A DNA stretch of 64,000 bases from Vicinamibacteria bacterium. Lineage in GTDB: Bacteria > Acidobacteriota > Vicinamibacteria > Marinacidobacterales > Marinacidobacteraceae. The position numbers and the translations under genes are program-made. The first letter of the stretch is position 1, and each line of letters starts with the position of its first letter. The stretch is from positions 2,592,001 to 2,656,000 of the forward strand of contig OY821641.1 of assembly GCA_963555995.3 (NCBI GenBank), read 5' to 3'. This document shows positions 4,176-21,253 of the stretch, one piece after another. The notes beneath the pieces are model-generated. The model was not told the origin of the DNA. It did not search any database and worked only from the letters and a program-made list of their open reading frames with translations.

Positions 4176-4391
4176 CACCTCGCTGCCGGGCGGCTCCGGC
4201 GCATCCTGTTCCGGCTCCAGGAGGCGACCGACCCACGCAGCGCTGATGCGCCCGAGTTTCGGCTGCATCCGCTGAATGGCGACCGCGCGGGCGAGTGGAG
4301 TGTTCGCGTCTCCGGCAACTGGCGGGTCGTGTTCCGTTTCGAGGACAAAGAGGTCGTGGACGTGAACCTGATTGACTATCACTGTCGGTAG
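4176..4391 (+). pseudogene. higB: 5'-truncated HigB (RelE-type) toxin
   Basis: RLRRIL.RL....FRLHPLNGDRAGEWSVRVSGNWRVVFRFED..VVDVNLIDYH; no in-frame start and the usual N-terminus is absent. Confidence 0.75.
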
Positions 4392-4413
4392 AGGAGTGCC
4401 GACAAGGAACGAC

Positions 4414-4704: not shown

Positions 4705-4722
4705 CCGAACCGGCCGCGCGAC

Positions 4723-5058
4723 TCACCGATGGCTCGGCGCGCCCTGTCCGGCCGCGTCCGAATCGAGCGCCACTTCCGGGCGCAACTTCAGGCCCAGAGC
4801 GTCGAGGACCCGGAGAACGGTGTCGAGCGTGGGATTGCGCTCCCCCGAAAGCGCCTTGTAGAGGCTTTCGCGGGACAGGCCGGCGTCGGACGCGACCTGC
4901 GACATCCCCCGGGCGCGGGCCATATCGCCGAGCGCCTTGGCGATGAACGCGGCATCGCCGGCCGCCTCCTCCATGCAGGCTTCCAGACAGGCGGCCATTT
5001 CCTCCGGCGTGCGGAGGTGCTCGGCCACGTCGTAAGGCGTAGTAGCGGTCGTGGTCAT
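4723..5058 (-). CDS. Addiction-module antidote protein (TIGR02684-like), orphan
   Basis: YDVAEHLRTPEEMAACL...ALGDMARARGMSQVA..AGLSRESLYKALS..RNPTLDTVLRVL. Confidence 0.88.
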   Translation of the reverse strand: MTTTATTPYDVAEHLRTPEEMAACLEACMEEAAGDAAFIAKALGDMARARGMSQVASDAGLSRESLYKALSGERNPTLDTVLRVLDALGLKLRPEVALDSDAAGQGAPSHR

Positions 5059-5133
5059 GGTTCCCACCTACAGGTTTGCCGTGTGAACGCAGTCCCGCGG
5101 GTCCGCCAGGCGCCGTGATGGCGCCACCGGCTG

Positions 5134-5294
5134 GGAACGCCGGTCTCCAGACCGGCACAGCGGGCCGAAGGCCCGCGGACGTCGTACCGCTGTCTGCCGT
5201 GATGGACCAGGAGTCGAACCCATTCGTGCGGGGCAGCGTCGTGCCGTGCGCTGCGCTGTCGCGCAGCGCGTGCCGGTCTGAAGATCGGCGCTCC
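5134..5294. repeat. REP doublet (REPIN/MITE-like), about 160 bp
   Basis: ggaacgccggtctccagaccggca ... tgccggtctgaagatcggcgctcc; spacer is homologous to the reverse complement of 27219-27331. Confidence 0.85.
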
Positions 5295-5472
5295 AGACAA
5301 CCATTTTCATGACCGACGAGGTGTGCAGGAGGACCGATCATGAGGATTTCGGGGAAGGCGTAGGGCCGTCGTCCAGCGATCCGCGTAGACGTCGGACTTC
5401 CGGATCGCAACGGACGGAACGTAGCCAGAAGGCTACAGCCTGTCGAAGAGCGTCGTCTGCCGGCGTTCATCA

Positions 5473-6636
5473 CTACGCGGCCCAGTCACGCACCCACCCC
5501 ATCATCTCCTCCAGCGGAATCCCCAGGATCTCCGCCCCGCGACCCAGGGAAATGCGACCATCTTCCAGAGCCCTTCTCACCAGTCGGGAAAGGCAATCTG
5601 GCCTGAAGTCGTGCTCCGACAGCGCCACCGGCTCGCTGGCGCGACTCCAGTTCCACGCGAACTCACTCTCCTGGAGCGCTTCCGGCTCATCCCGCTTTCC
5701 CGGAGTCCTTCCGAAGCGACTCCGGTGCTGCGTCTGGAATCTGCCCCAGACATCGCGACTCTCGCGGTCCGTCGTGACGAGCCGGTAGAGCACGGTCCTG
5801 TAGCTGACCCGGAACGTCCGCTTCACTGCGAGAACGCGCACCAGCAGCGGGTACCCGCGAGTGGCCTCCCACTCGACGGCGAAGGCCTCCTCCGGCATCA
5901 GGAACTCGCTGGCAAAGGCGTCCGCATCGGCCTCGGCCTTCCGTGGAAGGTCGGTTTGTTCGCTCCGGAATTCCCCCGGATGGAGAAGCAGATGCCCCAG
6001 TTCGTGGGCAGCCGTGAAGATCCAGCGCTCCACCGAGATCCGGTCCCAGACGTTGACCACCACCGCCGGACCACCGTCCTCCGGCCCCACGCTCAGCCCG
6101 AAGAACGAGTCACGCTTCTTGTCCAGCAAGAGGACCTTGACGCCGCTGTCTTCGAGCAACCGGCAGATGTTGGCGACCGGCGCCCGGGACCCGAGCCCCG
6201 CCGCCCGTCGCACGGCTCTCGCGACCTCCGCGGGAGGCCTGACGCCGTTTGACGCGACCAGTTCCTGAAACCGGAACGGCTGCGTTTCGTTCAGTTCCGC
6301 CTCCAGCCAGACGTAGGCGTCCAGCCTCGCCGAGACTTCCGCGAGCGTCTGCTCTCGCCCGTACATCGTCGAGTGAGCGCGGAAGCGGGCACTCCGAAGC
6401 GGCCGCACGGGGATGACCAGATCCCGGACCGGAACCCCAAGGGCCCGCGCCAGCCCGGCGAGCGTCCCCGCGCGGGGCACAACAACGCCACGCTCGATCT
6501 TCCCGATGGCGACCCGGGACACCCCAACCTGCTCGGCGAGCGCGGCCTGGGTCAGCCGCCGGTCCAGCCGCAGCCGGGCGACGTTCGCAGCGATCGCGGT
6601 CTCTTGAGACATGGCCCCTCGCTTGACAAGCTCCAT
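5473..6636 (-). CDS. XRE-family HTH fused to ImmA/IrrE metallopeptidase
   Basis: N-terminal HTH LTQAALAEQVGVSRVAIGKIERG; FTAAHELGH zinc motif; E.DADAFASEFLMP; start may be 6612. Confidence 0.92.
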   Translation of the reverse strand: MELVKRGAMSQETAIAANVARLRLDRRLTQAALAEQVGVSRVAIGKIERGVVVPRAGTLAGLARALGVPVRDLVIPVRPLRSARFRAHSTMYGREQTLAEVSARLDAYVWLEAELNETQPFRFQELVASNGVRPPAEVARAVRRAAGLGSRAPVANICRLLEDSGVKVLLLDKKRDSFFGLSVGPEDGGPAVVVNVWDRISVERWIFTAAHELGHLLLHPGEFRSEQTDLPRKAEADADAFASEFLMPEEAFAVEWEATRGYPLLVRVLAVKRTFRVSYRTVLYRLVTTDRESRDVWGRFQTQHRSRFGRTPGKRDEPEALQESEFAWNWSRASEPVALSEHDFRPDCLSRLVRRALEDGRISLGRGAEILGIPLEEMMGWVRDWAA

Positions 6637-6667
6637 AGTTATCTTATCTACATAGCCTGTGAAAACG

Positions 6668-7810
6668 ATGCTCCATAGAGAGACTCAGAACGCCGACTAC
6701 ACTCGGGACCAGAGAGATCCCGCCGTGCCGTATCCCCAACCGACCTTCCCTCGCGCCGAGGTGGACGCCGCCGGGAGAGTCCTCACGGAGACCCCGACCG
6801 CGGACGCAACCGCGGGCGCGGCGCGACAGCGGGCAAGGGAGCTGGTGGACGACTGGCGGGCTTCCCACGCCCATCCGCTGGTCACGTTCCGCGTTCTTCT
6901 GGAGGAGCGCGCCCGCCGCATCGCCCCGGAGGCGCTGGTGGCGCAGCGGCTGAAGCGCCTCGCCTCTGTGGAAGCGAAGCTCCGCCGGTTCCCCTGGATG
7001 AAGGTCTCGCGGATGCAGGACCTCGGCGGCTGCCGGGCCATCCTCCCGTCCGTGCGGGAGGTGCGGGAACTCGTCGAGACCTGCCGACAGGGCCGCGAGG
7101 AACACGAGTTCGTCAAGGAATCCGACTACCTCGAGCAGCCGAAGCGCAACGGCTATCGCAGCGTCCATCGCGTCTATCGCTACCGCTCCCGGGCGGGCCG
7201 GAACGCGGCCTGGAACGGGCATCGGATCGAGATCCAGATCCGGTCCCGCCTGCAGCACGCCTGGGCGACTGCGGTGGAGACGGTGGACGCCCTGACCGGC
7301 ACCCGACTGAAGACGAGCGGCCCCGCGAACGGCCTCTGGGACCGCTTCTTCGCGCTCATGGGGAGCGTCTTCGCCATTGAAGAAGGGTGCCCGCCAGTGC
7401 CAGAGACTCCCGCAACGCGGTCCGAACTGCGGGATGAGGTCCGGGACCTCGTTCGGGCGCTTGACGTGGAGGGCGCGCTCTTCGGTCTGGGGAGCACCAT
7501 CCAGAATGTTCGACTGCCCGCCGACGCCGCGTGGTTCCTGATGAGCCTGGACGCCGCCGGCCGGAAGGTGTTCATCCGCAGCTACGGCCAGCGGCAGTTT
7601 TCCACCGCCCAGGCCGAGTACCTCAGGCTCGAAGCAGAGTACGAAGGCAGGCCCGGGTTCCAGGCGTGCCTCCTGTCCACGGACTCGGCGAAAGCCCTTC
7701 GGCAGGCGTATCCCAACTACTTCCTCGATGTCAGCGCGTTCTCCGAGTCGCTGAACCGGTTTCTCGACGGCCCGGACGATCGGGCCTCCGAGTACCAGCG
7801 TGCTTCCTGA
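6668..7810 (+). CDS. capRel: Small alarmone synthetase-domain protein, fused CapRel-like toxin-antitoxin
   Basis: QRLKRL.S...KL.R, MQDLGGCR, DY...PK.NGYRSVH, IEIQIRSRLQHAWATAVE; C-terminal YPNY (YxxY) motif; about 380 aa. Confidence 0.75.
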   Translation: MLHRETQNADYTRDQRDPAVPYPQPTFPRAEVDAAGRVLTETPTADATAGAARQRARELVDDWRASHAHPLVTFRVLLEERARRIAPEALVAQRLKRLASVEAKLRRFPWMKVSRMQDLGGCRAILPSVREVRELVETCRQGREEHEFVKESDYLEQPKRNGYRSVHRVYRYRSRAGRNAAWNGHRIEIQIRSRLQHAWATAVETVDALTGTRLKTSGPANGLWDRFFALMGSVFAIEEGCPPVPETPATRSELRDEVRDLVRALDVEGALFGLGSTIQNVRLPADAAWFLMSLDAAGRKVFIRSYGQRQFSTAQAEYLRLEAEYEGRPGFQACLLSTDSAKALRQAYPNYFLDVSAFSESLNRFLDGPDDRASEYQRAS

Positions 7811-7896
7811 CCCCATCTGAAGGCGCAACGCTGCTATCGAGAGCCGCTTCGAGTACAACACCACGGACCAGAACCTCCCGCCCCCCTGCTGACCCG

Positions 7897-9102
7897 ATGT
7901 TCGACACGAAAGACCAGATCCTCGACCAACTCCGCGCCGGGGAGGACAGCCGCGCCGAGTTCAAAGAAGTGCGCTTCGGGGGCCGCGGGGTGATCTCTCC
8001 CAATACCGAAGATCTGGCCGGCGAACTGGTGGCGTTCGCAAACGCCGGTGGCGGCGCGCTCTTCCTCGGTGTGGACGATTCGGGAAAAGTGCTCGGCATC
8101 CCGTCGGACCGAGTCGGCGCCACGGAACGCTGGCTGGTCAACGTGGCGACGAACAACTGTGATCCCCCGATTCGGCCGGACGTGCGCAAGGTCTGTCTTG
8201 CCGTCCCTAACGGAGATGAGCAGCCGATTCTGGTCATTCGCGTTCCCCGGGGCACCTTCGTCCACCAGACCTCGGGAGGCCGGTACTACGCACGGGTCGG
8301 CTCGACAAAACAGCGGCTCACCTCGCCGGAACTCGCGCGGCTCTTCCAGGATCGCGGCCGCGGTTACGTCTTCGACGAACAGCCGGTGTTCGCCGCCGAC
8401 GTGAACGAGCTCGACTGGGACCGCCTCGAAACATTCTTTGGTCGCTCGCCGAACATTCCGTGGCTCGACCTGCTACGCAACACCCGCGTCGTGCTGCGCG
8501 ACGAGGAGGACGCCGACCGGCCTTCGGTGGCCGGTCTGTTGACCTTCGGCAAACAGCCGACCGAGCACCTGCGGAGCGCCTGGATCGAAGCCGCCTGCTA
8601 CCGGGGAACCCGGCTTTCATCCGACGATCTGATCCACGAGGAGCGCCTCCGCGGCCCGGCCCCCGACCAGATGGACGCCGCGGTCGCCTTCGTCATGCGC
8701 TTCGGCGCCGCCGGTGACGACCCGGCCCGCCGACCGCCCTATGACATCGAGGTGGTGGACGAGGCCATCGTCAACGCCGTCGCCCACCGCGACTATTCCA
8801 TCTACGGCGCAAAGATCCGCCTCTTCCTGTTCGCCGACCGCCTGGAGCTCTACAGCCCGGGTAAGCTGCCCAACACGATGACGCTGGAGGAAATGCCCTA
8901 CCGCGTCTTCACCCGTAACCAACACCTCGTGAACTTCCTCTCCCGCATCCACAGCAAGCGCACGGGCCGGGTCTTCCTCGAATCGCGCGGCGAAGGCGTC
9001 CGTAGGATCCTTGAAGGCGGCGAAGCCCACTCCGGCCGCCGCCCCAAGTACGAACTCTTCGGCGAGGAACTCCGCCTTACCCTCTGGACCAAAGCACGGT
9101 GA
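7897..9102 (+). CDS. Schlafen/AlbA_2 domain plus HATPase_c_4 protein
   Basis: GEDSRAEFKE, VAFANAGGG.LFLGVDD, EAIVNAVAHRDYS, LELYSPGKL, RN..LVNFL, ESRGEGV. Confidence 0.88.
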   Translation: MFDTKDQILDQLRAGEDSRAEFKEVRFGGRGVISPNTEDLAGELVAFANAGGGALFLGVDDSGKVLGIPSDRVGATERWLVNVATNNCDPPIRPDVRKVCLAVPNGDEQPILVIRVPRGTFVHQTSGGRYYARVGSTKQRLTSPELARLFQDRGRGYVFDEQPVFAADVNELDWDRLETFFGRSPNIPWLDLLRNTRVVLRDEEDADRPSVAGLLTFGKQPTEHLRSAWIEAACYRGTRLSSDDLIHEERLRGPAPDQMDAAVAFVMRFGAAGDDPARRPPYDIEVVDEAIVNAVAHRDYSIYGAKIRLFLFADRLELYSPGKLPNTMTLEEMPYRVFTRNQHLVNFLSRIHSKRTGRVFLESRGEGVRRILEGGEAHSGRRPKYELFGEELRLTLWTKAR

Positions 9103-9271
9103 ACGCAGGTTGCGGACCGAAAGGGTACCGTCTGTCGCATTGTGGATCACGAGACAATTCAGAGGACAGTGTTCCACCCAACGCTACCGTAGGGCCGGAT
9201 AGGCGGTAGTAACCGGACGGTATCGCTTCGAAGTCGTGCAGGTGTGCGTCACCGAGACTCAAACGGGATAG

Positions 9272-11479
9272 ATGGGCTGGGGCGGAATGCATCGCGACGG
9301 GAAGGAAAACCGATTGCACTGCATGTGGCGTCGCGTCACGGAGATACTGGGGTCCCCTTGGCGCTGGTGGCGGAACCGAAAAGGACGCGCAGCGGGCCAG
9401 ATGCCGGCGGTGCTCGGCGATGGTTTGGGCGGAGCGAATTGGGACCGGCATCCAGTACCAACAAGCTCGGAGACTGCACCGCCCACAGCGGAACCAACCG
9501 AGGCAGAACCAAGTAACACGGCGCAGGAGAACGACACCGACCCACTACCGACTCCCGATAAGGATCGCGCCGGGGGCGAACCAATCTCGCACGGAATTGC
9601 TGAGAGGGAGCGCGACAGCGAAGCGTCGCGACGACCGCGGTCGCGCGGGGGCGAACGCGGGCGGGAGCATCGGGGCAAGGATCCTGCTGACGGGGAGACT
9701 GTGTGGCATCCGTCGGCAACAAAGGAGGGACAGGTAGAGATCGTGTGCCGTGAGCACGAAGGGCGGTGGGAGCTAGCGGTCGTGCCGCGTCGCGGCGTGG
9801 TGGTGCGCGGCACCGATGGGCAGCTGGCGTCAGCGAACGGCGAATTCGTTCCGGCATCCTTTCGCAGCGAGGTCTATATCGAGAACGTCGCAGGAGGAGA
9901 GCGCCGACTCCTGCCGCTGTATACGGACAAACCAATGGTCTTCCAAGTCGGCACGGACTGGCGGGGTCCGGGCCGCAAAGTGCGCGGAGTCGGTGTCGGC
10001 CACTTCGTGGCGATCGTGCCCATGGAGTGGACCCGTTGGGGAAGCGCGCCGGTGAAGCCGGAACCATGTGCGGATGCGGGTTTCTGCGCGCACTACTTCC
10101 ACGGGGCTCGAGGGGACGCACCGAAGGCCGAAGGGTTCGAAGAATTCGGCGCCGTGTCGACCTCGGTCATCGAACTTGTCGGTCGGCGGGTCTTCGACGA
10201 CTCGGATCAGGGCGAGCTGTACGTGGGGCATGTACCGGAGCTAAACGCGCCAGGCATGGCGTGGGCACATGTGGGCGAGGAGGGTCGAAAAGGCTGGCGC
10301 GAAACCTATCGCCTGGACAGCGGACAAACGCTCGCCGATGTCGTCGGGGATCGCCAAGGGTGGTTCTTTGTACGCGTGTACCGCGAGGGCGAAATAGTGC
10401 AGGCGGACAGCGTCCAGTTCCGATACCTCGCGAGTCTGCGGGAGATCCGCATCGACGGGAGGCCGTACACGGCCGACACGCTCTTGACTCCGGGGCCGCG
10501 AGGCCACGGAACGTCGCGGATCGATTTCGTCGGATCAACCAAAGCCCGCGTCCGCATCGAGGGAACGGTGACGAGCGGACTGAGTGTGGCGCCCGGTGGC
10601 ACGTCGGTCGCGTGTGCCCCGCACCCAGAGCTGGGGGAGTTGCAGTTTCGGTTGACCGATGGCCACGGAGCGGTGGATGTTGTGATCGACCTGCCGCGGG
10701 TGTGGTGGCGGCTGGAGCGCGCGGGACAGGCGCTGGCCTCCTGGAGGGACCGATCCGATACCGTGACTAGGAACGAGTACCGAGCGCTGGCGCTCGACGG
10801 GTTTGCGGTAACGGTAAGGGTGCCGGCACGGGCCGCCCCGGTCGGGTTCGGCTTCGACGAGGAAGGTCGAGTGGGGTACCCGGGCAGGCGGGAGGGACGG
10901 CGCGCGTTGTGCGTCGTGTCGCTCCGGGATTTCGCGGACCACGAGGAGATCGACCGGCGGTTGTTCCGGGATGCCGTCTTTGGCGCGCGCTGCGGGGAGG
11001 CCATAGTGGACCTCATGAAGGTGGCCGCCGACCCGTTACCCAAGATCGCTGAATTCACAGTCGCGCCTGCTCGCGCGCGGGTGGGGGAGACGGTGGCCGT
11101 ACTCTGGAGGATCGAGAACTGCGAAGGCGTCGAAGTCTCACTGGAGCCGGACGTCGGTCCGGTGGCTGCCGAGGGCCGGTACAAAATCCGAATGGACCGA
11201 CGGACGCGGGTGGCCCTGCGGCTCGTCGCACCCGGGATGAACGACCTCGTGCGCGAGTTCTTCGTCGACTTGGAGCCACCCGCGGCGTCCTTGGAGCAAC
11301 AGCCCATAGCGCGCGCAAGGCGAGCCGGGAGCTGGCGTCGCGCGAAGGGATTCAGCCCCGGGGAGATGGCGGAGGCCGCGGGCTCAGTGCGACTATCGGT
11401 AAGGCGCGACCGGCGCCGCAGAAGCGCGCACGCGATCAACATCGCGTCACTTGAGGACTGGATGAATGCACAACGCTGA
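9272..11479 (+). CDS. Uncharacterised helicase partner: beta-rich/Ig-like domains plus C-terminal ribosomal protein L13e-like domain
   Basis: 735 aa; Ig-like PKIAEFTVAP...GETVAVLWRIENC..V.LEPDVGPV; C-terminal RRAKGFSPGEMAEA...DRRRRSAHAINIASL; overlaps the helicase start by 14 nt; start uncertain. Confidence 0.75.
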   Translation: MGWGGMHRDGKENRLHCMWRRVTEILGSPWRWWRNRKGRAAGQMPAVLGDGLGGANWDRHPVPTSSETAPPTAEPTEAEPSNTAQENDTDPLPTPDKDRAGGEPISHGIAERERDSEASRRPRSRGGERGREHRGKDPADGETVWHPSATKEGQVEIVCREHEGRWELAVVPRRGVVVRGTDGQLASANGEFVPASFRSEVYIENVAGGERRLLPLYTDKPMVFQVGTDWRGPGRKVRGVGVGHFVAIVPMEWTRWGSAPVKPEPCADAGFCAHYFHGARGDAPKAEGFEEFGAVSTSVIELVGRRVFDDSDQGELYVGHVPELNAPGMAWAHVGEEGRKGWRETYRLDSGQTLADVVGDRQGWFFVRVYREGEIVQADSVQFRYLASLREIRIDGRPYTADTLLTPGPRGHGTSRIDFVGSTKARVRIEGTVTSGLSVAPGGTSVACAPHPELGELQFRLTDGHGAVDVVIDLPRVWWRLERAGQALASWRDRSDTVTRNEYRALALDGFAVTVRVPARAAPVGFGFDEEGRVGYPGRREGRRALCVVSLRDFADHEEIDRRLFRDAVFGARCGEAIVDLMKVAADPLPKIAEFTVAPARARVGETVAVLWRIENCEGVEVSLEPDVGPVAAEGRYKIRMDRRTRVALRLVAPGMNDLVREFFVDLEPPAASLEQQPIARARRAGSWRRAKGFSPGEMAEAAGSVRLSVRRDRRRRSAHAINIASLEDWMNAQR

Positions 11480-14400
11480 AGAGCTGAGCGGCTGGACGGA
11501 GACCATCCGACAGCGTTATCGGAACTATTTGCGGACATCGTTCTTCTTCAAGGAACCCGCGCTGCGAACCTCGTTCGCAGTGGCGCTAGAGCAGGAGGCG
11601 GAGCTGCTGAAGGGACCGTTTCCGGAACCGGGACGGTTGTTCGCCCGTGGCGTGAGCGCGCCGGAGCTCGCGCAGGAATACCTCGGTAGTGAGTGCGACG
11701 GGTTGCGTCCGGCACTGCTTGACAATCCCTTGTACACGCACCAAGAGCGGGCTGTACGAATGACCTTCGGCGAAGCGCGCAACGTTGTGGTGGCCACCGG
11801 GACGGCGAGTGGCAAAACGGAGAGCTTCCTGTATCCGATCCTGTTCGAGTTGTACCGGCAGCATCTGGCCGGGCAGCTTGCGGTGCCGGGTGTTCGCGCC
11901 TTGGTGCTCTATCCGATGAACGCGCTCGCGAACGATCAACGGGAGCGTCTGCGGAAAATCTGCCGCACGCTAGAACACCACGGTTCGGATTTCATACCGA
12001 CGTTTGGGCAGTACATCGGCGAGACCCCCTACATTGCGCCGGCCGACGTGGCCGAGGAGGCTGCCCGTGGTGAACTGCTAGGCCGTGAGCAGATGCGGCA
12101 GACACCGCCACACATCCTCTTGACGAACTACTCGATGCTGGAATACCTGCTGATGCGGCCGGACGATAGTCCGCTGTTCGAGAACAGCAGCCAGTGGCAG
12201 TTCATGGTGCTTGACGAGGCTCACCAGTACCGGGGCGCGAAAGGCATGGAGATGGGGATGCTGCTGCGGCGCCTCAAACAACGCCTGCGCGACGGCGGGC
12301 GGGCGGACGCGTTCCGCTGCATCGCAACGAGTGCCACGATGAGTTCGGGGGAGGGCGGCAAAGAGCGCCAAGCGGTCGCGGACTTCGCGACGGCTCTGTT
12401 CGGCGAACCGTTCGAAATGGACGGCGTAATCTTCGGGGAACTGGACGCAACAGATCGCCCCATGGCCACTGCGGGGCGCTACCACGCGTTTCTGCGGGCC
12501 TTGGAGGGCGCCTTCTTGGTCCATCGTGGTGGCAGGGACGTAGTGGTTTTGAACCGCAGCGGTGGGGAGGCACCAGCGGGGCCTCCCGTGCCGCTCGAGA
12601 TCGCGCTCTGCAGGGAATGTGGGCAGCACTACTATGTGGGTCGCGAGCGCGGCGGGCGGCTCGCGGAAGGAATTCGGGATCCCAGCCACGAGTCGTTCGG
12701 CGTCGAGTACTTCCTGCCGACGGACTACGCGGCCACACACTGGCTCTGTCGCCGCTGCGGGGCGCTGTCCGGCGGCGGGCCTACGTGCGATTGCGACGCA
12801 GGCACGGGGGTGAAGCACTGCGAGGCACATCCGGACCGGCCGGACCAGTTGCGCGAATGCGCTGTGTGCGGCTACCAGCGGGGTAGTCTGGGCGATCCCG
12901 TCCAAGAGATCGTGCACGGGTCAGACGGGCCGAACGCAGTGATCGCCACGGCGCTCCACGAAGTGCTGCCAGCAGAGCGCCGCAAGGTGTTGGCGTTCGC
13001 GGACAGCCGGCAGGAAGCCGCGTTCTTCGCCTGGTACGCGGAGGACTCATACAAGAAGCTCCGCGATCGCAACCTCATGCTTCGGGCGCTCCGCTCGAGT
13101 CCCATCGATGTCGAAGGGTTGTCGGTGGACGACCTGGCGACACGGTTGGCACGGCAATGGGACGCAGCCGGTCTCCTGAAGGAATCCGACACTCAGGAGA
13201 CACGCAAGCGCGCGGTCCTTGGGTCGATCTTTGCAGAGGCGCTCACCGAAGAGCGGCGCCTTTCATTGGCGGGCGTAGGGCTCGTGAAATGGACGGTGAG
13301 AATCCCAGCAGATGTCTTATTGCCCGCTATCGTGCATGCGACGCCGTGGCGCTTGAGCGATTTCGAGGCGCGGGAACTGATCGGCTTCCTGCTGGAACAG
13401 ATGCGCACGCGGCGTGCTCTCGCGCTGCCGGAGGGACCGGGAGCGCCGGACTGGGCCGATGTGACGCCGTGGGCGACCCAGGCGTTCGCACCCGGCCCAC
13501 CCGGACGCCGAAAGGGCGTGGTGCAATGGGGCGGACCGCAATCGGCCGTCGTCACGCACTATCTCGCCAGGCTGCTCGGTGCCGAGGTTTTCGAGGAGCA
13601 GCGCCCGCAAACGTCTCAGGCGCTGATGCGGGCGCTGTGGCAGGCACTCCGGGACCGGGATCGCGCCCACCGTTCGGACGAACAGCTGTTGTGGGGTGGC
13701 CAGGGCAGGTGGAACGGGACGTTCCGGATTAGCCCACACTGGCTGCGGGTCCAGCTGGCCGACGCAGCCGACATCTGGGAATGTGACACGTGCGCAGGGC
13801 TGAGCGCACACCGCGTGCGCGGCATCTGTCCCCGCAACGGATGCCCCGGAACGCTTGGCTCGGTAGACGAGGGGCGATTAGGTCAGAACCACTATCGGAT
13901 TCTCTACGAGAGCGACGAACTTCCCGCCGAATTGGTGGCGGAAGAGCACACCGCGCAGATCGAAAGCGGTGAGGCGCGGCGCCGTCAACGGGATTTCAAG
14001 GATGGATCGACACACTTGCTCAGCTCGTCGACGACGTTTGAGGTAGGTGTCGACCTCGGCGATCTGGACGTGGTATTCCTGCGAAACGTCCCGCCCGAGC
14101 CATTCAACTACACACAACGCGTGGGGCGTGCCGGGCGCCGGGACAGGCCCGGGCTCGCGCTGACGTACTGCCGGCGGAACCCGCACGACCTGTACCACTA
14201 CGGCGACCCCGAGGAGCGGGTGATCAGGGGCAAAGTGGAGCCACCCAGGCTCCGGATGACGAATGAGAGGATCATCGTACGGCACATGGTTGCCGCGTCG
14301 CTTGCGGCCTTTTTCAAGGCTGACGACAACCGCGGCCGGTTCAAGAATGTGGAGGCGTTCGTGGGGGACTGGTCGGCACCTCGGAGCGTGTCGGACGTAA

Positions 14401-15677
14401 GGAGCTTTTGCACCGGCAACGCGGCGCTTGGGAAGGCGCTGCGTCGCATCGTTCCTGATGAGATGCACGACGCGGTCGGTCTGTCCTCGGACGGCTGGGT
14501 GAGGCGCGTCTGCGGGCCCGCGAGCCGCTTCGCGCAAGTTGAAGCGGAGGTAGTTTCTGACTACCAACGCATGGAAGACTTGCGACTGGCGCTATTCCAG
14601 AAGCGGGAGAGCACGGGTCGGGTCGAGGCTCGGATCAGGACGGTACGCCGTGAATCGACCCTGACTTTCCTGTCGCGCAAGGCGGTGATCCCGAAATACG
14701 GCTTTCCGGTGGATGTCGTAGAACTGGACACGCACTCGGAGGACGGGCGCGTGGCCCTGCAACGGGATCTGTCGCAGGCGATCGCGGAGTACGCACCAGG
14801 GGGGCGCGTTGTTGCGAACAAGCGCGAGTGGTCGTCGTACGGGCTGAAGATGGTAGCTGGGAAGGCGTGGCCCGTGCGGTCCTACGCGTACGACGACGCA
14901 CGGAGTTTCCGGCAGTGGCACGAGGGCGATCCGTCAGCGCCGCCTGATGCCCGCCGATATGTGATCCCGGAATGGGGGTTCGTGACCCAGTGGTCGAAAC
15001 AACCGCCACGGCCGCAGGGCCGCGCGCGGCGCTTCTACACTACCCGGCCGTTCTTCCGGGGCTTCGGCCGCGTGGATCGGCCGACCACGCGCGTCGTTCG
15101 CGGCGTGGAGGTGACGCAGGCGCAACCCGGGACGCTCGTGATTCTCTGCGAAGGGAGGAACCGGTCGGGTTTCTACATCTGCGGCATGTGCGGCGCGCAT
15201 GCCACGGCGCGAAAGAGGGCACATCGGACACCTGCGAACATCGCTTGCCAAGGTTCGATGGGCTGGTTCTCGCTCGGCCATGAACTCGTAACCGACGTGG
15301 TGCGCCTGAAGTTTCCGGGAGTCGGAGACGAGTGGCACGCATACTCGGTCGGGTATGCCGTGCTCCTGGGCGCCGCGGAGACGCTCGGCGTGCCCAACAC
15401 GGACTTGAACGTGACGATTGCAAGGGCTGAAGATCCAGGCACGTCCGCCATCGTGCTCTACGACGCGGTGCCGGGTGGGGCCGGACTGGTCGCGCAACTC
15501 GAGCGTGACGACGTGTTTTCACGCGTGCTGGTGCTCGCCCGTCAGCGCGTGGACGGCGACTGTGGTTGCGATTCAAGCTGTTACGGTTGCCTACGCAGCT
15601 ACCGGAATCAGTTCGCGCATCCGTACCTCCACCGGATGCGCGCGGCGGAGACGCTGGACGCGCTAAGAGGGCCGTGA
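11466..15677 (+). CDS. DEAH-box helicase with Zn ribbons and C-terminal DUF1998 (YprA family, DruE-like)
   Basis: LYTHQ, TGTASGKT, YPMNALANDQ, TNYSMLEY, DEAH, TSAT, LAFADSRQEAA, TFEVGVDLG, QRVGRAGR, YDAVPGGAG, CGCDSSCYGCL. Confidence 0.92.
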   Translation: MHNAEELSGWTETIRQRYRNYLRTSFFFKEPALRTSFAVALEQEAELLKGPFPEPGRLFARGVSAPELAQEYLGSECDGLRPALLDNPLYTHQERAVRMTFGEARNVVVATGTASGKTESFLYPILFELYRQHLAGQLAVPGVRALVLYPMNALANDQRERLRKICRTLEHHGSDFIPTFGQYIGETPYIAPADVAEEAARGELLGREQMRQTPPHILLTNYSMLEYLLMRPDDSPLFENSSQWQFMVLDEAHQYRGAKGMEMGMLLRRLKQRLRDGGRADAFRCIATSATMSSGEGGKERQAVADFATALFGEPFEMDGVIFGELDATDRPMATAGRYHAFLRALEGAFLVHRGGRDVVVLNRSGGEAPAGPPVPLEIALCRECGQHYYVGRERGGRLAEGIRDPSHESFGVEYFLPTDYAATHWLCRRCGALSGGGPTCDCDAGTGVKHCEAHPDRPDQLRECAVCGYQRGSLGDPVQEIVHGSDGPNAVIATALHEVLPAERRKVLAFADSRQEAAFFAWYAEDSYKKLRDRNLMLRALRSSPIDVEGLSVDDLATRLARQWDAAGLLKESDTQETRKRAVLGSIFAEALTEERRLSLAGVGLVKWTVRIPADVLLPAIVHATPWRLSDFEARELIGFLLEQMRTRRALALPEGPGAPDWADVTPWATQAFAPGPPGRRKGVVQWGGPQSAVVTHYLARLLGAEVFEEQRPQTSQALMRALWQALRDRDRAHRSDEQLLWGGQGRWNGTFRISPHWLRVQLADAADIWECDTCAGLSAHRVRGICPRNGCPGTLGSVDEGRLGQNHYRILYESDELPAELVAEEHTAQIESGEARRRQRDFKDGSTHLLSSSTTFEVGVDLGDLDVVFLRNVPPEPFNYTQRVGRAGRRDRPGLALTYCRRNPHDLYHYGDPEERVIRGKVEPPRLRMTNERIIVRHMVAASLAAFFKADDNRGRFKNVEAFVGDWSAPRSVSDVRSFCTGNAALGKALRRIVPDEMHDAVGLSSDGWVRRVCGPASRFAQVEAEVVSDYQRMEDLRLALFQKRESTGRVEARIRTVRRESTLTFLSRKAVIPKYGFPVDVVELDTHSEDGRVALQRDLSQAIAEYAPGGRVVANKREWSSYGLKMVAGKAWPVRSYAYDDARSFRQWHEGDPSAPPDARRYVIPEWGFVTQWSKQPPRPQGRARRFYTTRPFFRGFGRVDRPTTRVVRGVEVTQAQPGTLVILCEGRNRSGFYICGMCGAHATARKRAHRTPANIACQGSMGWFSLGHELVTDVVRLKFPGVGDEWHAYSVGYAVLLGAAETLGVPNTDLNVTIARAEDPGTSAIVLYDAVPGGAGLVAQLERDDVFSRVLVLARQRVDGDCGCDSSCYGCLRSYRNQFAHPYLHRMRAAETLDALRGP

Positions 15678-15820
15678 GGTCTGCGGTGCGGCGACCGCCA
15701 AGAATGCCGAGGTCCGGCTCGAGGGCCGTCCGGACTCCAACGTTTTTCGGAGTGGGCGGACACGGGGTCATATGCCGCGTATCGGAGCGACCAGAGTCGT
15801 AACGGAGGTTGAGATCGGAC

Positions 15821-16663
15821 GTGAAGAAGCAACTTGGGTACAGCGAGTTCTCCTTCGGGTACGCCTTCACGGAGAACTTGGTGCGGTCGTCGGCGGCGGG
15901 TCCGCCGGCCGCACCGCGTTTTCCAAACCTGCAAGAGGAGGGACAGCTTGGCTATGACGTGCAGTTGACGGCGGGAGGAGTTCCGTTGTTCCTGCAGTTC
16001 AAGCTGCCGGAACGGATGGTGCGCACGACGGCGGCCGAGATTTCGAAGTACGGCCTCAATCGGAGTGGTCTGTCAACACCGTTCTTTCGGTTGTATCTGA
16101 TGAAGAGGAACGTGTCCCGGCAGCACGAGCTGCTGATCGAAATAGAACAGAAGGAGCCTGGAAGCGTCTTCTACGCAATGCCCCACCTGGTTGGACCGCG
16201 AGAATTCAGCACGGCCTACGCCGCTATGGCCGTGCATCGACACTCCGTGCTGTTTTCTCCCTGTGATATCGGTCCGTTGCGAGACGATGCGCAGCACACA
16301 GTTGCGTACGACCCGAGGTCGCGCGGCGCGTGGTTTTGTTCGGAGCCGAAACTCATTGAAGCCCACGATGTCGTGTCGGTGCTTGCGGAGAGGGGCCGGG
16401 CGGCGAGTGAGCAGGTGACAGGTGGTTTGGCAGCCGTGGCGCGAGCGATTTCCGGACGGATTCTGTCGACGAGACCCGGTGAGCTTGACGACGTAGCAGC
16501 TGCGGCGCGGGAACGGCGGCGGCGCATCGTCGCGGATTCGCGGCAGCGCGACGAGGCAGAGGAAGCCGTTGAGGAGCTGTTCATCGCACGAGAGTTAGCC
16601 CGCATCGGACTAGGTGTGGAGTTGCTGATCGCGCAGCCCCGCCCTGCGACGGCGACGAGGTGA
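15821..16663 (+). CDS. Putative PD-(D/E)xK restriction-like nuclease
   Basis: SEFSFGYAF...EEGQLGYDV...PLFLQFKL, a D...QxK active-site pattern. Confidence 0.62.
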   Translation: MKKQLGYSEFSFGYAFTENLVRSSAAGPPAAPRFPNLQEEGQLGYDVQLTAGGVPLFLQFKLPERMVRTTAAEISKYGLNRSGLSTPFFRLYLMKRNVSRQHELLIEIEQKEPGSVFYAMPHLVGPREFSTAYAAMAVHRHSVLFSPCDIGPLRDDAQHTVAYDPRSRGAWFCSEPKLIEAHDVVSVLAERGRAASEQVTGGLAAVARAISGRILSTRPGELDDVAAAARERRRRIVADSRQRDEAEEAVEELFIARELARIGLGVELLIAQPRPATATR

Positions 16664-16781
16664 TAGCCAGAATCCGGATCGTGCGTAATGACCTAGTGAA
16701 TCATTGCCCTAGTGATCCAGAACAGCGACCACGGGGAGGGATGCCCACCAAAGACCGGCGTTCCCAGCCCGCGCGTCAGTC

Positions 16782-18374
16782 TCAGTTCTCCAGCTCGTCC
16801 TCCCGGACCGTCGGGTAGTCGATGCCGAGCTGCTCCAGGTAGGTGTCGTAGGTGTCGGGGTCGTAGTAGAAGGGGCGCATGGCTTCGCGGAACGAATCCA
16901 TCCTGTCCTTGTTGAGGTGGATCGCCGGGGGGTCGTTGGGGCCGATGAGGGGGCTGTACTGGTGCTCGGCGGTCTGTTGGGTGAAGTAGTTCTTGGCTGC
17001 CGTGACGAGTGAGGGGTCGAGGAAGAGGTCCATCAGGGTCATGGCGATGACCCGGGCGCCGGCGGTGACGCCCTTGTGGGCGATGGGGGTCGCCATCGCG
17101 ACCGCGTTGGCCCAGTGGTGGCCCGGGCCGCCGGGGATGTTCGCGGGATAACGCATGGTGACGGTGGGGACCTTCCAGGAGATGTCCCCGATGTCGTCGG
17201 AGAAGCCGCCGAGCCGGGGCTCGGGCGCCGGGCCGCCCATCCGGCCGAGTTCCGTGGCGAGGCCGCGCTGCTCGACGCCGAGTTCGCGCTGGAGGCCCCG
17301 GGCGAGCGTCTGGTCGGCTTCGCTCCACTCGGGAAGGCCCACGCGCTCGATGTTGGCCCAGACCGCTTCCGCGACGGGCTTGTTGAAGTGGCGGGGGTAG
17401 GCGTGGCCGAGGATGCGCCATGACGCCTTGGTGGAGGTCATCGCGGCGGCCGCCTCGGCCATCGTGTTGCCGAGTTCGTAGAGCTCCTTCATGTGGGGCT
17501 GGTCGAGCTCGCGGAAGTAGTACCAGACGGAGGCGAGCTGGGGGACGACGTTGGGCTGGTCGCCGCCGTTCGAGATCACGTAGTGGGAGCGGTGCGGCAG
17601 GCGGAGGTGCTCGCGCTTGACGTTCCACGCCATGTTCATGATCTCGACCGCGTCGAGGGCGCTGCGTCCGCGCCACGGCGCGCCCGCGGAGTGGGCCGAC
17701 TCGCCCTCGAAGGTGTATTCGACGGAGACGAGGCCGCTGCCCCTGCCCTGGCCCCAGCTCACCCCGAAGTCGGAGGCGACGTGGGTGAAGATGTTGATGT
17801 CTATGTCGTCGAAGTAGCCGGCGCGGATGAACCACGCCTTGGTGGCGAGCAGTTCCTCCGCCACCCCCGGCCAGATGACGATGGTTCCGGGGATGCCCTC
17901 GCGCTCCATGACCTCCTTGGCGGCGAGCGCGCCGACGATGACGACCGCCTGGCCGGAGTTGTGGCCCTCGCCGTGGCCGGGGGCGCCCTCGACGAGCGGA
18001 TCGAAGTAGGCGACGCCGGGCTTCTGGGACGCCTTCGGGATGCCGTCAATGTCGCTGCCGAGCGCGATGACCGGGGAGCCGGAGCCCCAGCGGGCCATCC
18101 AGGCGGTGGGGATGCCGGCGATGCCTTCTTCGACCTCGAAGCCGTGGTCGCGGAGGACGCCGGTGAGGTAGCGGGAGGTCTCGACCTCCTGGAAGCCGAG
18201 CTCGCCGAAGCTGAAGACGGAGTCCACCATCACCTGCGCCAGCTTGGCGCGCTCGGCGGCACCCTGGTCGGCGACGGGGCGGAGGGTTTCGGCGTCCTGG
18301 GCGGCTGCCGGGGCGAGCGCGAGCGCGCACCAGAGGGCCGACAGGGCGGCGGATTTCGGGATGCGGGAAGACAT
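16782..18374 (-). CDS. M20-family amidohydrolase (AbgB-like) with signal peptide
   Basis: FGELGFQE, GSDIDG, GHGEGHNSG, GVAEE, AHSAGAPWRGRSALDAVE, GGDQPNVVP; GGAGG RBS before ATG 18374. Confidence 0.92.
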   Translation of the reverse strand: MSSRIPKSAALSALWCALALAPAAAQDAETLRPVADQGAAERAKLAQVMVDSVFSFGELGFQEVETSRYLTGVLRDHGFEVEEGIAGIPTAWMARWGSGSPVIALGSDIDGIPKASQKPGVAYFDPLVEGAPGHGEGHNSGQAVVIVGALAAKEVMEREGIPGTIVIWPGVAEELLATKAWFIRAGYFDDIDINIFTHVASDFGVSWGQGRGSGLVSVEYTFEGESAHSAGAPWRGRSALDAVEIMNMAWNVKREHLRLPHRSHYVISNGGDQPNVVPQLASVWYYFRELDQPHMKELYELGNTMAEAAAAMTSTKASWRILGHAYPRHFNKPVAEAVWANIERVGLPEWSEADQTLARGLQRELGVEQRGLATELGRMGGPAPEPRLGGFSDDIGDISWKVPTVTMRYPANIPGGPGHHWANAVAMATPIAHKGVTAGARVIAMTLMDLFLDPSLVTAAKNYFTQQTAEHQYSPLIGPNDPPAIHLNKDRMDSFREAMRPFYYDPDTYDTYLEQLGIDYPTVREDELEN

Positions 18375-18633
18375 GGGGGCGCCTCCGGTCGGGGGGTGGT
18401 GGGACGGGTTGGCGATTCTACGGGCGGGGCCGCCCCGGACTCGTGCGCCTCCGAGCGGACCGCGCGCTCCTTGAAGCGCTGATTGCGGCAGTATTCGGGG
18501 CGCTGGTTCCCGAACTCCCCCAAATGACGCTACGGCACGAAACTCTGCTGATCGGGGCCTTCCCGCCACATGGGGTAGCGGTACGCCATGAGGCCAAACA
18601 ACCACGGGAGTTTCGCTGCGCGGAGCGCAGCGG

Positions 18634-18657
18634 TGCCGGTCTGGAGACCGGCGTTCC
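18634..18657. repeat. REP-like palindrome
   Basis: tgccggtctggagaccggcgttcc. Confidence 0.8.
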
Positions 18658-18682
18658 AGGCCGGCGGCGCCATCACGGACCC

Positions 18683-21253
18683 GTGGGGGGCGTGCTGCTC
18701 TTCCTCCTCGCTGCGGGCGCGGCCGGCGCCGAACCGCCGGTCCAGCAGCAGGCGGAGCCGCCGGGGGAGGAGGAAGCGGAGCCGGTGGAGGGGCAGCCCG
18801 AGACCGAGCCGGGGCCGCCGCGGTTCACCGAGGAGGTGGTGGTGGTCGGGACGCGGGCCACGCCGCGCTCGATCCTCGAGTCGGCCGCCCCGATTGACGC
18901 GATCCGGCCGGAGGAGCTGTTGAGCCAGGGGCCGCCCTCGATCTACGAGCGGCTGCGCACGCTGGTCCCGTCGTTCGCGGTGAACACCCAGCCGATCAGC
19001 GACGCCTCGACGCTGGTGCGGCCAGCGATGCTGCGGAACCTGGCGCCGAACCACACCCTGGTGCTCGTGAACGGCAAGCGGCGGCACCGGTCGGCGGTGA
19101 TTGACTGGAACGGGGGGAACGGGGTCTCCTTCGGGTCGCAGGGGCCGGACCTGGCGGCCATCCCCGCCATCGCGCTGCGGCGCGTCGAGGTGCTCCGGGA
19201 CGGGGCGGCGGCGCAGTACGGCTCGGACGCGATCGCGGGGGTCATGAACTTCCTGCTGCGGGACGACCGGTCGGGCGGCGCGGTCGAGTTCCTGAGCGGC
19301 GTTCACGGGGAGGCGTGGGACGGGGAGACGTGGAACGTCGCGGGGAACGTCGGGCTGCCGCTCGGGAACGCGGGCTTCGCGAACCTGAGCCTCGAATACG
19401 GCGGCGCCGCGCCCACCGACCGGAGCGTCCGGCGGACCGACGTGGCGGAGCTGATCGCGGCCGGGAACCGGCACGTCCGGGAGCCGGCGCAGGTGTGGGG
19501 CTCGCCGGATACGGACGGCGACCTGAAGCTGTTCGGCAACTTCGGCCACCTCTTCCGGCGCGGCCTCCAGCTCTACGGACACGCCGGGTACGCGCGGCGG
19601 ACGGTGAGCGGGAGCTTCTTCTTCCGCAACCCGAACACCCGGAGCGGGGTCTTCAGCAACGACGGCGGGCGCACCCTGCTGGTCGGCGACGTGCTGGCGG
19701 CGCGCGGGACGGGTGCGGCGGGCTGCCCGGTGGTACGGGTGGTGGACAGCGTCCCGGACCCGGAACCGCTCGCGCGGGTGCTCGCCGACGAGCACTGCTT
19801 CTCGTTCCAGGAGCGGTTTCCCGGCGGGTTCACCCCCACCTTCGGCGGGACCTCGGGCGACGCGACGCTGGTCTGGGGGGTCCGCCGGCTCTTCGCCGGG
19901 GGCGTCACCTGGGACGCGAGCGTCAGCGTGGGCAACCACGAGGCGAGCTTCTTTCTCGAGGACACGGTGAACGCGTCGCTCGGGCCGGAGACCCCGACGG
20001 ATTTCGACCTCGGCAGCAACCATCAGCGCGAGATCGCCCTGAACCTGGACCTGTCGCGGCCGGTGGGGGACCGCCTCCACCTGGCGGGCGGCGCGGAGTG
20101 GCGGCACGAGCGGTACGAGACGCGCGAGGGCCAGCCGGAGTCGTGGGAGGTCGGCCCGTACGCGGCGCAGGGTTTCGGGGCCGGTTCCAACGGCTACAGC
20201 GGCTACGGCCCGGTGGCCGCCGGGCGCTGGGGCCGCGGCAGCGCCGCTGCGTACGGGGACGTCGAGCTGAGCGGCGGAGCGGGGCGCTGGCTGCTCGGCG
20301 CCGCCCTCCGCGCGGAGCGCTTCGAGGACTTCGGGAACACCGTCAACGGCAAGCTGTCGGGCCGCTACGAGGTGAGCCGCGGACTCTCGCTGCGCGCCAG
20401 CGCCGGGACCGGGTTCCGGGCGCCGACGCCCGGGCAGCAGAACTCGTTCAACGTCTCCACGAAGTTCGATCCGATCCTCCGGGACCTGACCGAGCGGGGC
20501 ACGATCCCTTCCATCTCCCCGGTGGCCGGGCTCCGCGGCGGGGGGCCGCTCGCGCCGGAGACGTCCCGGAACACCTCGCTCGGGGCGCTGGTCGAACGCG
20601 GCCGGTTCACGTTGACCGCCGATCTGTTCCGGGTGGATCTCGCCGACCGGCTCGCGGTCACCAGCGACTTCACCCTGACCCCGGAGGAGGTGGAGGGGCT
20701 CCTCGCCGCGGGGGTCGAGAGCGCCCGGGGGCTGGCGAGCTTCCGCTTCTTCACGAACGACATCGCGACCCGTTCGCAGGGGGTGGACGTCGTGGCGACG
20801 TGGGCGCCGCGGGCGCTGGGGGGCGACACGCGCCTCGGCGCCGTCCTGAACCACACCACCACCACCGTGACGGACTTCAATCCGGAGACGCTCCAGGCGG
20901 AACGCCGGGTGCGGGAGTTCGAGTCGTCGCTGCCGCGGAACCGGTGGAACGTCAGCGTGAACAGCCGCGTGGGGATCGCGGAGGTGCTGGCGCGGGTGGG
21001 CTACTACGGGGCGTGGTTCGACTGGGACAGCGCCCAGACGCTGTTCGCCGGGAAGCCGGTGGCGGACCTGGAGGTGAGCCTGCCGGTTTCGGGGCGCGCG
21101 ACGCTCGCGGTCGGCGCGCAGAACGTCTTCAACACCTTCTCCGACGAGAGCCCGAACGCCGGGGACGTGGGGGAGCGGTACAGCGAGTACACGCCGTGGG
21201 GGTTGGGCGGGGTCTTCCTCTACGCCCGGCTCCGCTACGCCTGGGAGGGGTAG
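18683..21253 (+). CDS. TonB-dependent receptor
   Basis: EEVVVVGTR TonB box, LVLVNGKRRH, RVEVLRDGAAAQYGSDAIAGVMN, GFRAP, C-terminal aromatic strand; start uncertain (18524 or 18683). Confidence 0.92.
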   Translation: MGGVLLFLLAAGAAGAEPPVQQQAEPPGEEEAEPVEGQPETEPGPPRFTEEVVVVGTRATPRSILESAAPIDAIRPEELLSQGPPSIYERLRTLVPSFAVNTQPISDASTLVRPAMLRNLAPNHTLVLVNGKRRHRSAVIDWNGGNGVSFGSQGPDLAAIPAIALRRVEVLRDGAAAQYGSDAIAGVMNFLLRDDRSGGAVEFLSGVHGEAWDGETWNVAGNVGLPLGNAGFANLSLEYGGAAPTDRSVRRTDVAELIAAGNRHVREPAQVWGSPDTDGDLKLFGNFGHLFRRGLQLYGHAGYARRTVSGSFFFRNPNTRSGVFSNDGGRTLLVGDVLAARGTGAAGCPVVRVVDSVPDPEPLARVLADEHCFSFQERFPGGFTPTFGGTSGDATLVWGVRRLFAGGVTWDASVSVGNHEASFFLEDTVNASLGPETPTDFDLGSNHQREIALNLDLSRPVGDRLHLAGGAEWRHERYETREGQPESWEVGPYAAQGFGAGSNGYSGYGPVAAGRWGRGSAAAYGDVELSGGAGRWLLGAALRAERFEDFGNTVNGKLSGRYEVSRGLSLRASAGTGFRAPTPGQQNSFNVSTKFDPILRDLTERGTIPSISPVAGLRGGGPLAPETSRNTSLGALVERGRFTLTADLFRVDLADRLAVTSDFTLTPEEVEGLLAAGVESARGLASFRFFTNDIATRSQGVDVVATWAPRALGGDTRLGAVLNHTTTTVTDFNPETLQAERRVREFESSLPRNRWNVSVNSRVGIAEVLARVGYYGAWFDWDSAQTLFAGKPVADLEVSLPVSGRATLAVGAQNVFNTFSDESPNAGDVGERYSEYTPWGLGGVFLYARLRYAWEG

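Follow-up and report, generated by a model that had tools for sequence, protein, structure and literature searches.

Within a stretch of 64,000 nucleotides of contig OY821641.1 from a Vicinamibacteria bacterium (the whole stretch is called the window here), two overlapping genes encode what is, by sequence, a Druantia type III-B module: a trimmed partner protein of the DruH type followed by a compact DruE helicase. The system type is already catalogued. The main novelty lies at the C-terminus of the partner, where a tail derived from the ribosomal protein eL13 occupies a slot that is filled by other domains in related proteins. This exchangeable slot was overlooked in a preliminary description of the locus, which had taken the two genes and a third open reading frame (ORF3) for a candidate new Druantia-like system with a stand-alone nuclease as its effector. 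The genes and the parts of the partner are the following.

Positions 9272–11479, + strand: partner gene, 735 amino acids, encoding a trimmed DruH-type protein of subtype III-B; an alternative true start at Met18 (9323) is possible.
Positions 9323–9376, + strand: basic, Trp-rich amphipathic helix of the partner (residues 18–35; hydrophobic moment 0.68).
Positions 9389–9721, + strand: acidic low-complexity linker, poorly conserved (residues 40–150).
Positions 9725–11041, + strand: conserved core of tandem β-sandwich (Ig-like) domains (residues 152–590; from the model, Foldseek and HH comparisons).
Positions 11039–11275, + strand: optional extra Ig-type domain (residues 590–668); repeats of the same type occur in unrelated proteins.
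Positions 11303–11476, + strand: eL13 (L13e)-derived tail, the exchangeable slot (residues 678–735).
Positions 11466–15677, + strand: helicase gene, 1403 amino acids, a compact DruE according to PADLOC, Pfam and trees.
Positions 15821–16663, + strand: ORF3, 280 amino acids from a GTG at 15821, with a probable PD-(D/E)xK fold; mobile and optional.

On the window protein alone the L13e-like tail is a weak match (NCBIfam, E = 1.8e-4). A profile of 24 tails finds the eL13 chain of PDB entry 9e6q, which we take to be archaeal, as its best non-repeat PDB match (E = 1.3e-14), ahead of eukaryotic eL13, and the best tail members match PRK12277 with E = 4e-17. Compared with archaeal eL13 (PRK12277, PF01294, PDB entry 9e6q), the tail follows the conserved core of the protein, including the motif GFS..EL..AG..I..D.RR, but it is fused to a bacterial defence-type protein, stays below the equivalog cut-off and is exchangeable. 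At the level of sequence the tail is eL13-derived. Bacteria are not known to have eL13. Matches of the tail profile to IcmE repeats were rejected, as they reflect low complexity and no single stretch of them is significant.

A census of the slot was made with 225 partner sequences, 224 of which have a complete core end and form 204 clusters at 90% core identity. The tail is eL13 in 167 clusters, and in one of these a complete NusB stands in front of it; because eL13-tailed proteins served as seeds for the searches, this share is inflated. The other named tails are uS5 (eight clusters), uS17 (one), MacB_PCD (one), a NusA C-terminal repeat (one; E = 1.7e-7) and a NusG-N-like piece (one; E = 2.2e-4). 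The remainder consists of unnamed families of five, three, two, two and two members, two Zn-ribbon-like tails, three singletons and six short ends. Thus, six of the seven tail kinds with a family match (eL13, uS5, uS17, NusA, NusB and NusG) belong to the transcription and translation machinery, MacB_PCD being the seventh. By eye only, the tails of P0195 and P0252 were read as bS6; this was dropped, as nothing corresponding to it was found in Pfam, NCBIfam or the search of their own genomes. Fusions also occur elsewhere on these proteins: in one clade (loci L024, L026, L030 and L095) a whole σ70 (regions 2, 3, 4 and 1.2) precedes the core N-terminally and the eL13 tail is degenerate, and α-CTD or σ4 annotations are found in three of the 120 listed long III-B-type partners.

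Placed on a FastTree phylogeny of the core, the tails require at least about 24 changes, two of which concern uS5. Loci L003, L008 and L025 carry three different tails on cores that are 70–90% identical; by sequence, exchange of the tail among relatives is shown. Three unnamed tail families turn up in different branches of the core phylogeny (P0206/P0257/P0258/P0265/L025, P0212/P0281 and P0034/P0201/P0211), so that their donors were apparently captured or passed on more than once. Tail U4 matches a stand-alone gene of about 155 amino acids in two Chloroflexota genomes with 39–51% identity (L116:1456–1920 and L117:1486–1968); this gene, which represents the donor family of U4, has no family match and adjoins a moeA-like gene (labelled by eye). 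No stand-alone copy of tails U1 and U5 was found in five genomes each. All six partners from the host's own genus and family are uS5-tailed, two of these tails being near-intact (89% and 82–88% identical to host uS5) and four diverged (31–58%). The fused uS5 in genome G019 is nearest to the rpsE of its own host, with a synonymous divergence (dS) of 0.39 compared with 0.80–1.16 for four other hosts and 1.46 for the second fused copy; this suggests a separate capture or a refreshing of this tail. The ratio of non-synonymous to synonymous divergence (dN/dS) of the two fused uS5 copies is 0.05–0.11, as in sequences under purifying selection. In the eL13 tail the non-synonymous proportion is below the synonymous one (pN < pS) in seven of seven pairs, and its rate of change equals that of the core. 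The uS17 tail and the uS17 of its host share 42% identity. The eL13 tails are strongly basic, with a median isoelectric point (pI) of 11.4 compared with 5.2 for the core, and 22 of the 34 non-eL13 tails have a net charge of at least +3. The literature searched holds no account of eL13 or other ribosomal-protein tails on Druantia partners; a mention in Figure 1 of Bell et al. (10.1101/2025.09.15.676423; PMC12458937) is possible.

The rest of the partner has a simpler build. A model of residues 151–735 (predicted local distance difference test score, pLDDT, 84.6) consists of a chain of β-sandwiches followed by a small helical tail. The extra Ig-type domain is missing in 33 of 168 clusters of the set initially scored as eL13-tailed. 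Of 174 clusters, 74 have an amphipathic helix before the core, compared with 27 of 174 control stretches; the helix is likely to be a membrane anchor, judging from its sequence. In the SNF2 fusion of locus L029 the amphipathic helix is at the C-terminus instead. In partners P0160 and P0249 the core region seems to be duplicated. For L065, whose N-terminal part is long, a fusion was considered and rejected, this part being upstream read-through.

Foldseek retrieved only generic Ig arrays for the partner model (TM score about 0.15), with no DruH structure among the matches, and neither PADLOC, Pfam nor ESM Atlas gave a named or usable match for the core. The DruH3 profiles of PADLOC have no match on the partner, while a control DruH matches 12 models. 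A profile of the core does match genes of about 1000–1270 amino acids upstream of long compact DruE helicases, at 17–22 bits compared with at most 2.4 for shuffled controls, and hhalign aligns the partner family with 64 such long partners over 424 columns (P = 95.7, E = 8e-9). These long partners are uncharacterised. By sequence, the partner is a trimmed member of the III-B-type partner family, a family that may correspond to the tested DruH, MSMEG_1253. The preliminary description had set it apart from DruH-type proteins, which this alignment does not support. III-A DruH is likewise built with Ig/Fn3 domains (10.64898/2026.05.13.724758; PMC13192584; 10.64898/2026.05.12.722862).

A model of partner residues 151–735 in complex with part of the helicase (residues 478–815) scores 0.75, the best control scoring 0.00. 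The mark for such models is reached by 116 of 157 solved pairs and by two of 215 mismatched pairs; own alignments were used, so these counts hold roughly. Between runs the contact agreement is at least 72%, with a partner pLDDT of at least 75. The predicted interface joins partner residues 508–561 to helicase residues 675–682 and 722–753 and does not involve the tail. It is formed around a conserved LxDFxDHxxI motif in which the near-invariant Asp556 is next to Leu551 and Ile560. The model supports binding of the helicase by the last core domain.

The helicase matches DruE1–4 of PADLOC with E values of 1e-144 to 1e-98, and DEAD, Helicase_C and MZB of Pfam. Walker A is at residue 112, DEAH at 250 and motif VI at 884; invariant CxxC pairs lie between the RecA parts at 382, 428, 465 and 773, and a Cys4 MZB/DUF1998 module spans residues 1297–1376. 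The split RecA2, the Zn inserts and the C-terminal Cys4 DUF1998 that had been read from the letters alone are thus in place. Behind MZB the protein has only 27 more residues and therefore no fused nuclease; the helicases of related loci end alike. In the type III-like YprA branch a nuclease is most often lacking (Bell et al., 10.1101/2025.09.15.676423), and III-B is defined as DruH with a compact DruE without PLDs (10.64898/2026.05.13.724758). Table S1 of Bell et al. (PMC12458937) lists OXT64_14250 (MDE0055394.1) as ‘Druantia Type III-B-like’; by accession and locus tag it adjoins OXT64_14245 (MDE0055393.1, our P0016), which is 52% identical to the partner. The two best plasmid matches of the helicase are both listed there as III-B-like, as is MSMEG_1254. 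Six contig prefixes of partner loci gave no match in the searched part of that table.

Two quick LG+G4 trees, one with 29 of 42 rows and the other with 19 of 42, place the window helicase inside a fully supported compact clade. This clade groups with PLD-less helicases of about 1600–1670 amino acids and the listed Clostridium butyricum III-B protein, with Shimodaira–Hasegawa-like approximate likelihood-ratio support of 99 (29 rows) and 94 (19 rows). The Ralstonia plasmid helicase, the second listed III-B entry, was not resolved in these trees. Union of the clade with three III-A helicases is rejected by the approximately unbiased test (p = 0.016). By sequence, the helicase lies in the III-B branch and is a compact, PLD-less DruE rather than a new type. 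The Druantia-like character that had been proposed for it is borne out, its novelty is not: a compact PLD-less DruE with one partner is what subtype III-B describes.

In its layout the module agrees with Druantia III-B as known from Bell et al. 2025 (PMC12458937) and from MSMEG_1253/1254 (PMC13316683): two coupled genes with the partner first, a compact YprA helicase that has Zn modules and DUF1998 but lacks PLD, helicase relatives in the III-B-like list, and a partner core homologous to the long partners of compact DruE. It differs in the size of the helicase (1403 amino acids compared with about 1560–1670) and of the partner (735 compared with about 1000–1270, only the central β array being kept), in the amphipathic helix and linker before the array and the exchangeable eL13, uS5, uS17 or Nus tail behind it, which go unmentioned in the available parts of those papers, and in the additional ORF3. 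Druantia III-A, the DruH–DruE pair of Escherichia coli, likewise combines a YprA helicase with one upstream partner with Ig/Fn3-like domains. It was rejected as an assignment: its DruE has about 2100 residues and PLD domains that are lacking here, its DruH3 profiles miss this partner and its helicases form a separate clade. ARMADA, DISARM, Dpd and BRIGADE, as well as TALON, share a YprA/DUF1998 helicase, in some of them with a separate or fused nuclease, but the methyltransferase, SNF2 helicase, deazapurine genes, TPR-CSD and TBP are absent from the ORFs scanned here. A search for PglX-like methyltransferase, SNF2 helicase, dpd genes, TPR-CSD/TBP and other Dru genes (Pfam on 22 ORFs, PADLOC on seven window ORFs) excluded ARMADA, DISARM, Dpd, TALON and Druantia I, II and IV, for want of their characteristic accessory genes. 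As the preliminary description had it, no methyltransferase, SNF2 or PLD gene is found among the 22 ORFs between 1 and 21 kb scanned with Pfam.

The partner and helicase genes overlap by 14 nt and have stayed together in other genomes. Among 32 GTDB loci found by a search with the partner, the helicase follows directly downstream in 29, at 54–74% identity and in several phyla. Further loci with the pair come from relatives of the host (seven), from metagenomes (three) and from elsewhere (four); two of them duplicate loci already counted, and some contain frameshifts or are cut. Three GTDB loci are exceptions. In L002 the genes behind an eL13-tailed partner (11859–14209) are GmrSD_N and AAA/DUF3696 rather than the helicase; in L029 (7022–11476), which is cut by the locus end, the partner core is fused N-terminally to a ZorD1-like SNF2 helicase (PADLOC, E = 1e-286); and L031 is a fragment. 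An SNF2 helicase is also seen in L110 (5555–10825), fused C-terminally to a partner core after a NusG-like piece. On this sequence comparison, partner and helicase are a conserved unit. The partner family is large, with 1073 clusters at E ≤ 1e-30, some of which are Ig-repeat proteins, and its distribution is patchy: a full-length partner is present in eight of 61 related genomes, and in other samples there are one strong and four weak matches in 301 genomes, two in 251 and three in 121. In three loci long III-B-type pairs stand directly after PglX/BrxC (BREX-like) genes, and in one among CRISPR–Cas genes (L106, L107, L108 and L096).

We favour, with a probability of roughly 55%, a Druantia III-B type module of two genes, with a likely anti-phage function, in which the tail is a nucleic-acid binder. 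The M. smegmatis relatives MSMEG_1253/1254 protect more than 10^4-fold and require contact between DruH and DruE; they block circularisation of the phage, and a tail protein is the trigger (PMC13316683). By this reading the partner would bind the compact DruE through its last Ig-like core domain, the tail being predicted to remain free in the fragment modelled, and the N-terminal amphipathic helix would hold the partner at the membrane. Upon infection the helicase would load on exposed single-stranded phage DNA or DNA ends, as III-A and M. smegmatis work suggests, and would then block phage circularisation and replication as in the tested relatives. The tail census suggests that the tail may grip RNA or single-stranded DNA near the site of entry and that host ribosomal and Nus genes refill the slot, supplying it with binders that come ready-folded. 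ORF3 may cut the unwound DNA. A nucleic-acid-binding tail is proposed because there is no counterpart of eL13 in bacteria that it could mimic, because the eL13 tails are strongly basic and because 22 of the 34 others carry a charge of at least +3; with eL13 as the majority tail, a generic binder fits better than a mimic of a host protein.

Several points weigh against this reading. The amphipathic helix is above the cut-off in only 74 of the 174 clusters. Twelve of the 34 tails other than eL13 have a nearly neutral or acidic character; among them are the NusA repeat (pI 5.0) and the NusG-like piece (pI 4.6), both of which natively bind mostly proteins. The partner core has no significant match to III-A DruH (HH probability 0.2% directly and 4.5% via the long partners), nor does it match the partners of the two listed III-B helicases of C. 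butyricum and the Ralstonia plasmid. As the N- and C-terminal regions seen in DruH-type proteins of about 1100–1250 amino acids are missing from the partner, it may work differently. Purified III-A DruH and DruE do not bind stably to each other (10.64898/2026.05.13.724758; PMC13192584). The anti-phage activity of this clade is argued by analogy with MSMEG_1253/1254.

Another use of the tail, which we consider unlikely though well worth keeping in mind, is that of an integrated decoy. The partner would be a membrane-anchored DruH sensor with a plug-in slot, the plug-in being bait for phage takeover factors that bind or modify it and so switch the helicase on. Plant nucleotide-binding leucine-rich repeat receptors with integrated domains offer an analogy, and phage takeover factors bind or modify σ70, Nus factors and ribosomal proteins. 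The slot may have held archaeal eL13 ancestrally and been refilled often with the host's own uS5, uS17, NusA, NusB and NusG, with σ70 at the other end. This would explain better than nucleic-acid binding the bias towards transcription and translation in six of the seven family-matched tail kinds, the acidity of the NusA and NusG pieces and the uS5 copy of G019, nearest to the rpsE of its own host; the low dN/dS of the fused copies, the whole N-terminal σ70 of one clade and the α-CTD/σ4 of long III-B-type partners also fit, and DruH has been proposed as a sensor of phage proteins (PMC13192584, PMC13316683). Such a role sits poorly with eL13, the commonest tail, which has no bacterial counterpart for a phage to target, and with the uS5 tails of the host's relatives, four of six of which have drifted so far that they would be poor mimics. 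Were it true, the module would be a bacterial counterpart of integrated-decoy receptors, and the list of tails would name the host targets of as yet unknown phages. Docking of the complex by its tail on the host ribosome or RNA polymerase, which would place the helicase at transcribed incoming phage DNA or at R-loops, appears improbable to us. In its favour, NusG-N, the NusA repeat, σ70 and α-CTD associate with the polymerase, and rRNA or the antitermination complex is what uS5, uS17 and NusB bind; however, bacterial ribosomes have no site filled by eL13, a tail behind a 600-residue Ig array would have to compete with native subunits and many tails have no family name. We give very little weight indeed to neutral capture of highly expressed genes, or to a role of the pair in DNA repair or another non-defence process. 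The identified donors are highly expressed except for MacB, six of the 204 clusters have only a short tail and the relatives of YprA include repair helicases (Bell et al., 10.1101/2025.09.15.676423), but purifying selection on fused uS5 and eL13, the patchy distribution, the island location and the helicase's place in a defence branch all argue otherwise.

The last alternative concerns ORF3, which could replace the missing fused nuclease and act as the effector of a three-gene system, an idea to which we attach a low probability. ORF3 is co-oriented, has an equally low GC content at third codon positions (GC3) and a PD-(D/E)xK-like fold and motif, and the gap in front of it has no terminator-like site. 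In addition, an ORF3 homologue and a longest contig of equal size (10,287, 273,287, 4,660,265 and 5,052,532) are found for four of the 26 closest partner clusters; the 10 kb case pairs the best match of each query, partner and ORF3, and a small three-gene sub-variant may exist. Against this, the ORF3 profile has a match in none of 45 partner loci, a few of them cut by contig ends; these include L001, the helicase of which is 74% identical. Among 121 genomes of one family ORF3 is present in four, the partner in three and both in one, about 1 Mb apart. Homologues are found by themselves on plasmids and in other islands, next to transposases or further defence genes, and the 143 nt gap between the helicase stop and the ORF3 start gives no sign of coupling. 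For the family, the new three-gene system is rejected on the contrast between no ORF3 in 45 partner loci and an intact pair in 29 of 32; the neighbourhood comparison upheld the two-gene part of the earlier proposal and removed the nuclease from its core. ORF3 is at most an optional add-on, a separate mobile gene of nuclease fold joined to this copy and perhaps to a few close ones, and unneeded by the family.

As for ORF3 itself, its family counts at least 158 proteins. Glu9, Glu18, Glu40, Asp46, Gln59 and Lys61 are invariant in 48 aligned sequences, and the arrangement Glu9/Glu18, Glu40–Gly44–Asp46, Gln59-x-Lys61 fits the E / D / (D/E/Q)xK catalytic pattern. The model (pLDDT 87) matches Hjc with Z = 6.2 and a root-mean-square deviation of 3.7 over 108 residues. 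Five more PD-(D/E)xK-type chains, including I-Ssp6803I and D212, follow at Z = 5.2–5.8, and an unrelated helical match ranks first (Z = 6.6). ORF3 has no match in Pfam, NCBIfam or PADLOC, and in ESM Atlas it falls in unnamed clusters only, with a DUF6615 lead at 0.84. It thus shares with Hjc, I-Ssp6803I, D212 and the DUF6615 lead a core fold (Z = 5.5–6.2) and an E..G.D..Q.K motif, but the Z scores are middling and family matches are lacking. On the model and the motif, a PD-(D/E)xK fold is probable, as had been proposed, and ORF3 is a predicted nuclease; the effector role for the family does not follow. The homologues are possibly a one-gene defence family. Those in L119, L120, L123 and L124 have restriction-type or ATPase genes (by eye) or, on plasmids, transposases with TniB/TniQ as neighbours, and the homologue L038:3824–6168 (genome G001) is split by an insertion. 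ORF3 was first called at 15809–16663 (284 amino acids); the GTG at 15821 is the more likely start because its homologues begin there. No promoter or terminator consensus was found in the gap or around ORF3.

The three genes, all on the + strand, form the right end of a 14 kb block:

Positions 2660–16780, no strand assigned: inserted defence and toxin–antitoxin island, flanked by ppk2 and the gene for an M20 peptidase, with lower GC content, delimited by comparison with G014.

The distance from ppk2 to the M20 peptidase gene is 14.1 kb here and about 1.5 kb in the same-genus genome G014, which alone has a clean empty-site junction; the four other genomes compared are without one. The excess of A/T-ending codons described earlier is real: GC3 is 0.75 in the partner, 0.77 in the helicase and 0.72 in ORF3, compared with 0.94–0.96 in ppk2, the M20 peptidase and a TonB receptor and with 0.82–0.85 in the island genes to the left. 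Genome-wide these values fall in the lowest 13–22% (a crude set of 1446 ORFs, median 0.89), which is low rather than extreme. A Druantia-like YprA helicase coupled to an L13e-tailed partner in a defence island is, with the probable fold of ORF3, what remains of the preliminary description.

The block further contains toxin–antitoxin genes and a gene for an HTH-IrrE peptidase (5473–6636, − strand), a RelA/SpoT-domain gene (6659–7810, + strand) matching PDC-S33 of PADLOC with E = 4e-106, and an AlbA_2/HATPase_c_4 gene (about 7891–9102, + strand) directly 5′ of the partner gene. Around ppk2 (996–4391) there are a PIN-domain gene, a Phd-type antitoxin and HigB-like toxin ORFs. Short elements at 5076–5350, 3049–3201 and 18602–18690, which are present many times over in the genomes of the genus that were searched, are likely to be similar to repetitive extragenic palindromic or miniature inverted-repeat transposable elements. 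The M20 peptidase gene (16782–18374) has three close copies in each of five same-genus genomes searched. A tRNA search of the window found none.

What is new here is the tail slot, as the system type was already known and the three-gene nuclease reading fails for the family. The partner consists of four separable parts, one of which is naturally swapped between near-identical cores, and the clade thus lends itself to asking what DruH senses, a question raised by the 2026 Druantia papers. It also means that selection maintains an archaeal and eukaryotic ribosomal protein in many bacterial genomes, in a role outside the ribosome, and that core housekeeping genes have repeatedly been captured by a defence-type protein.

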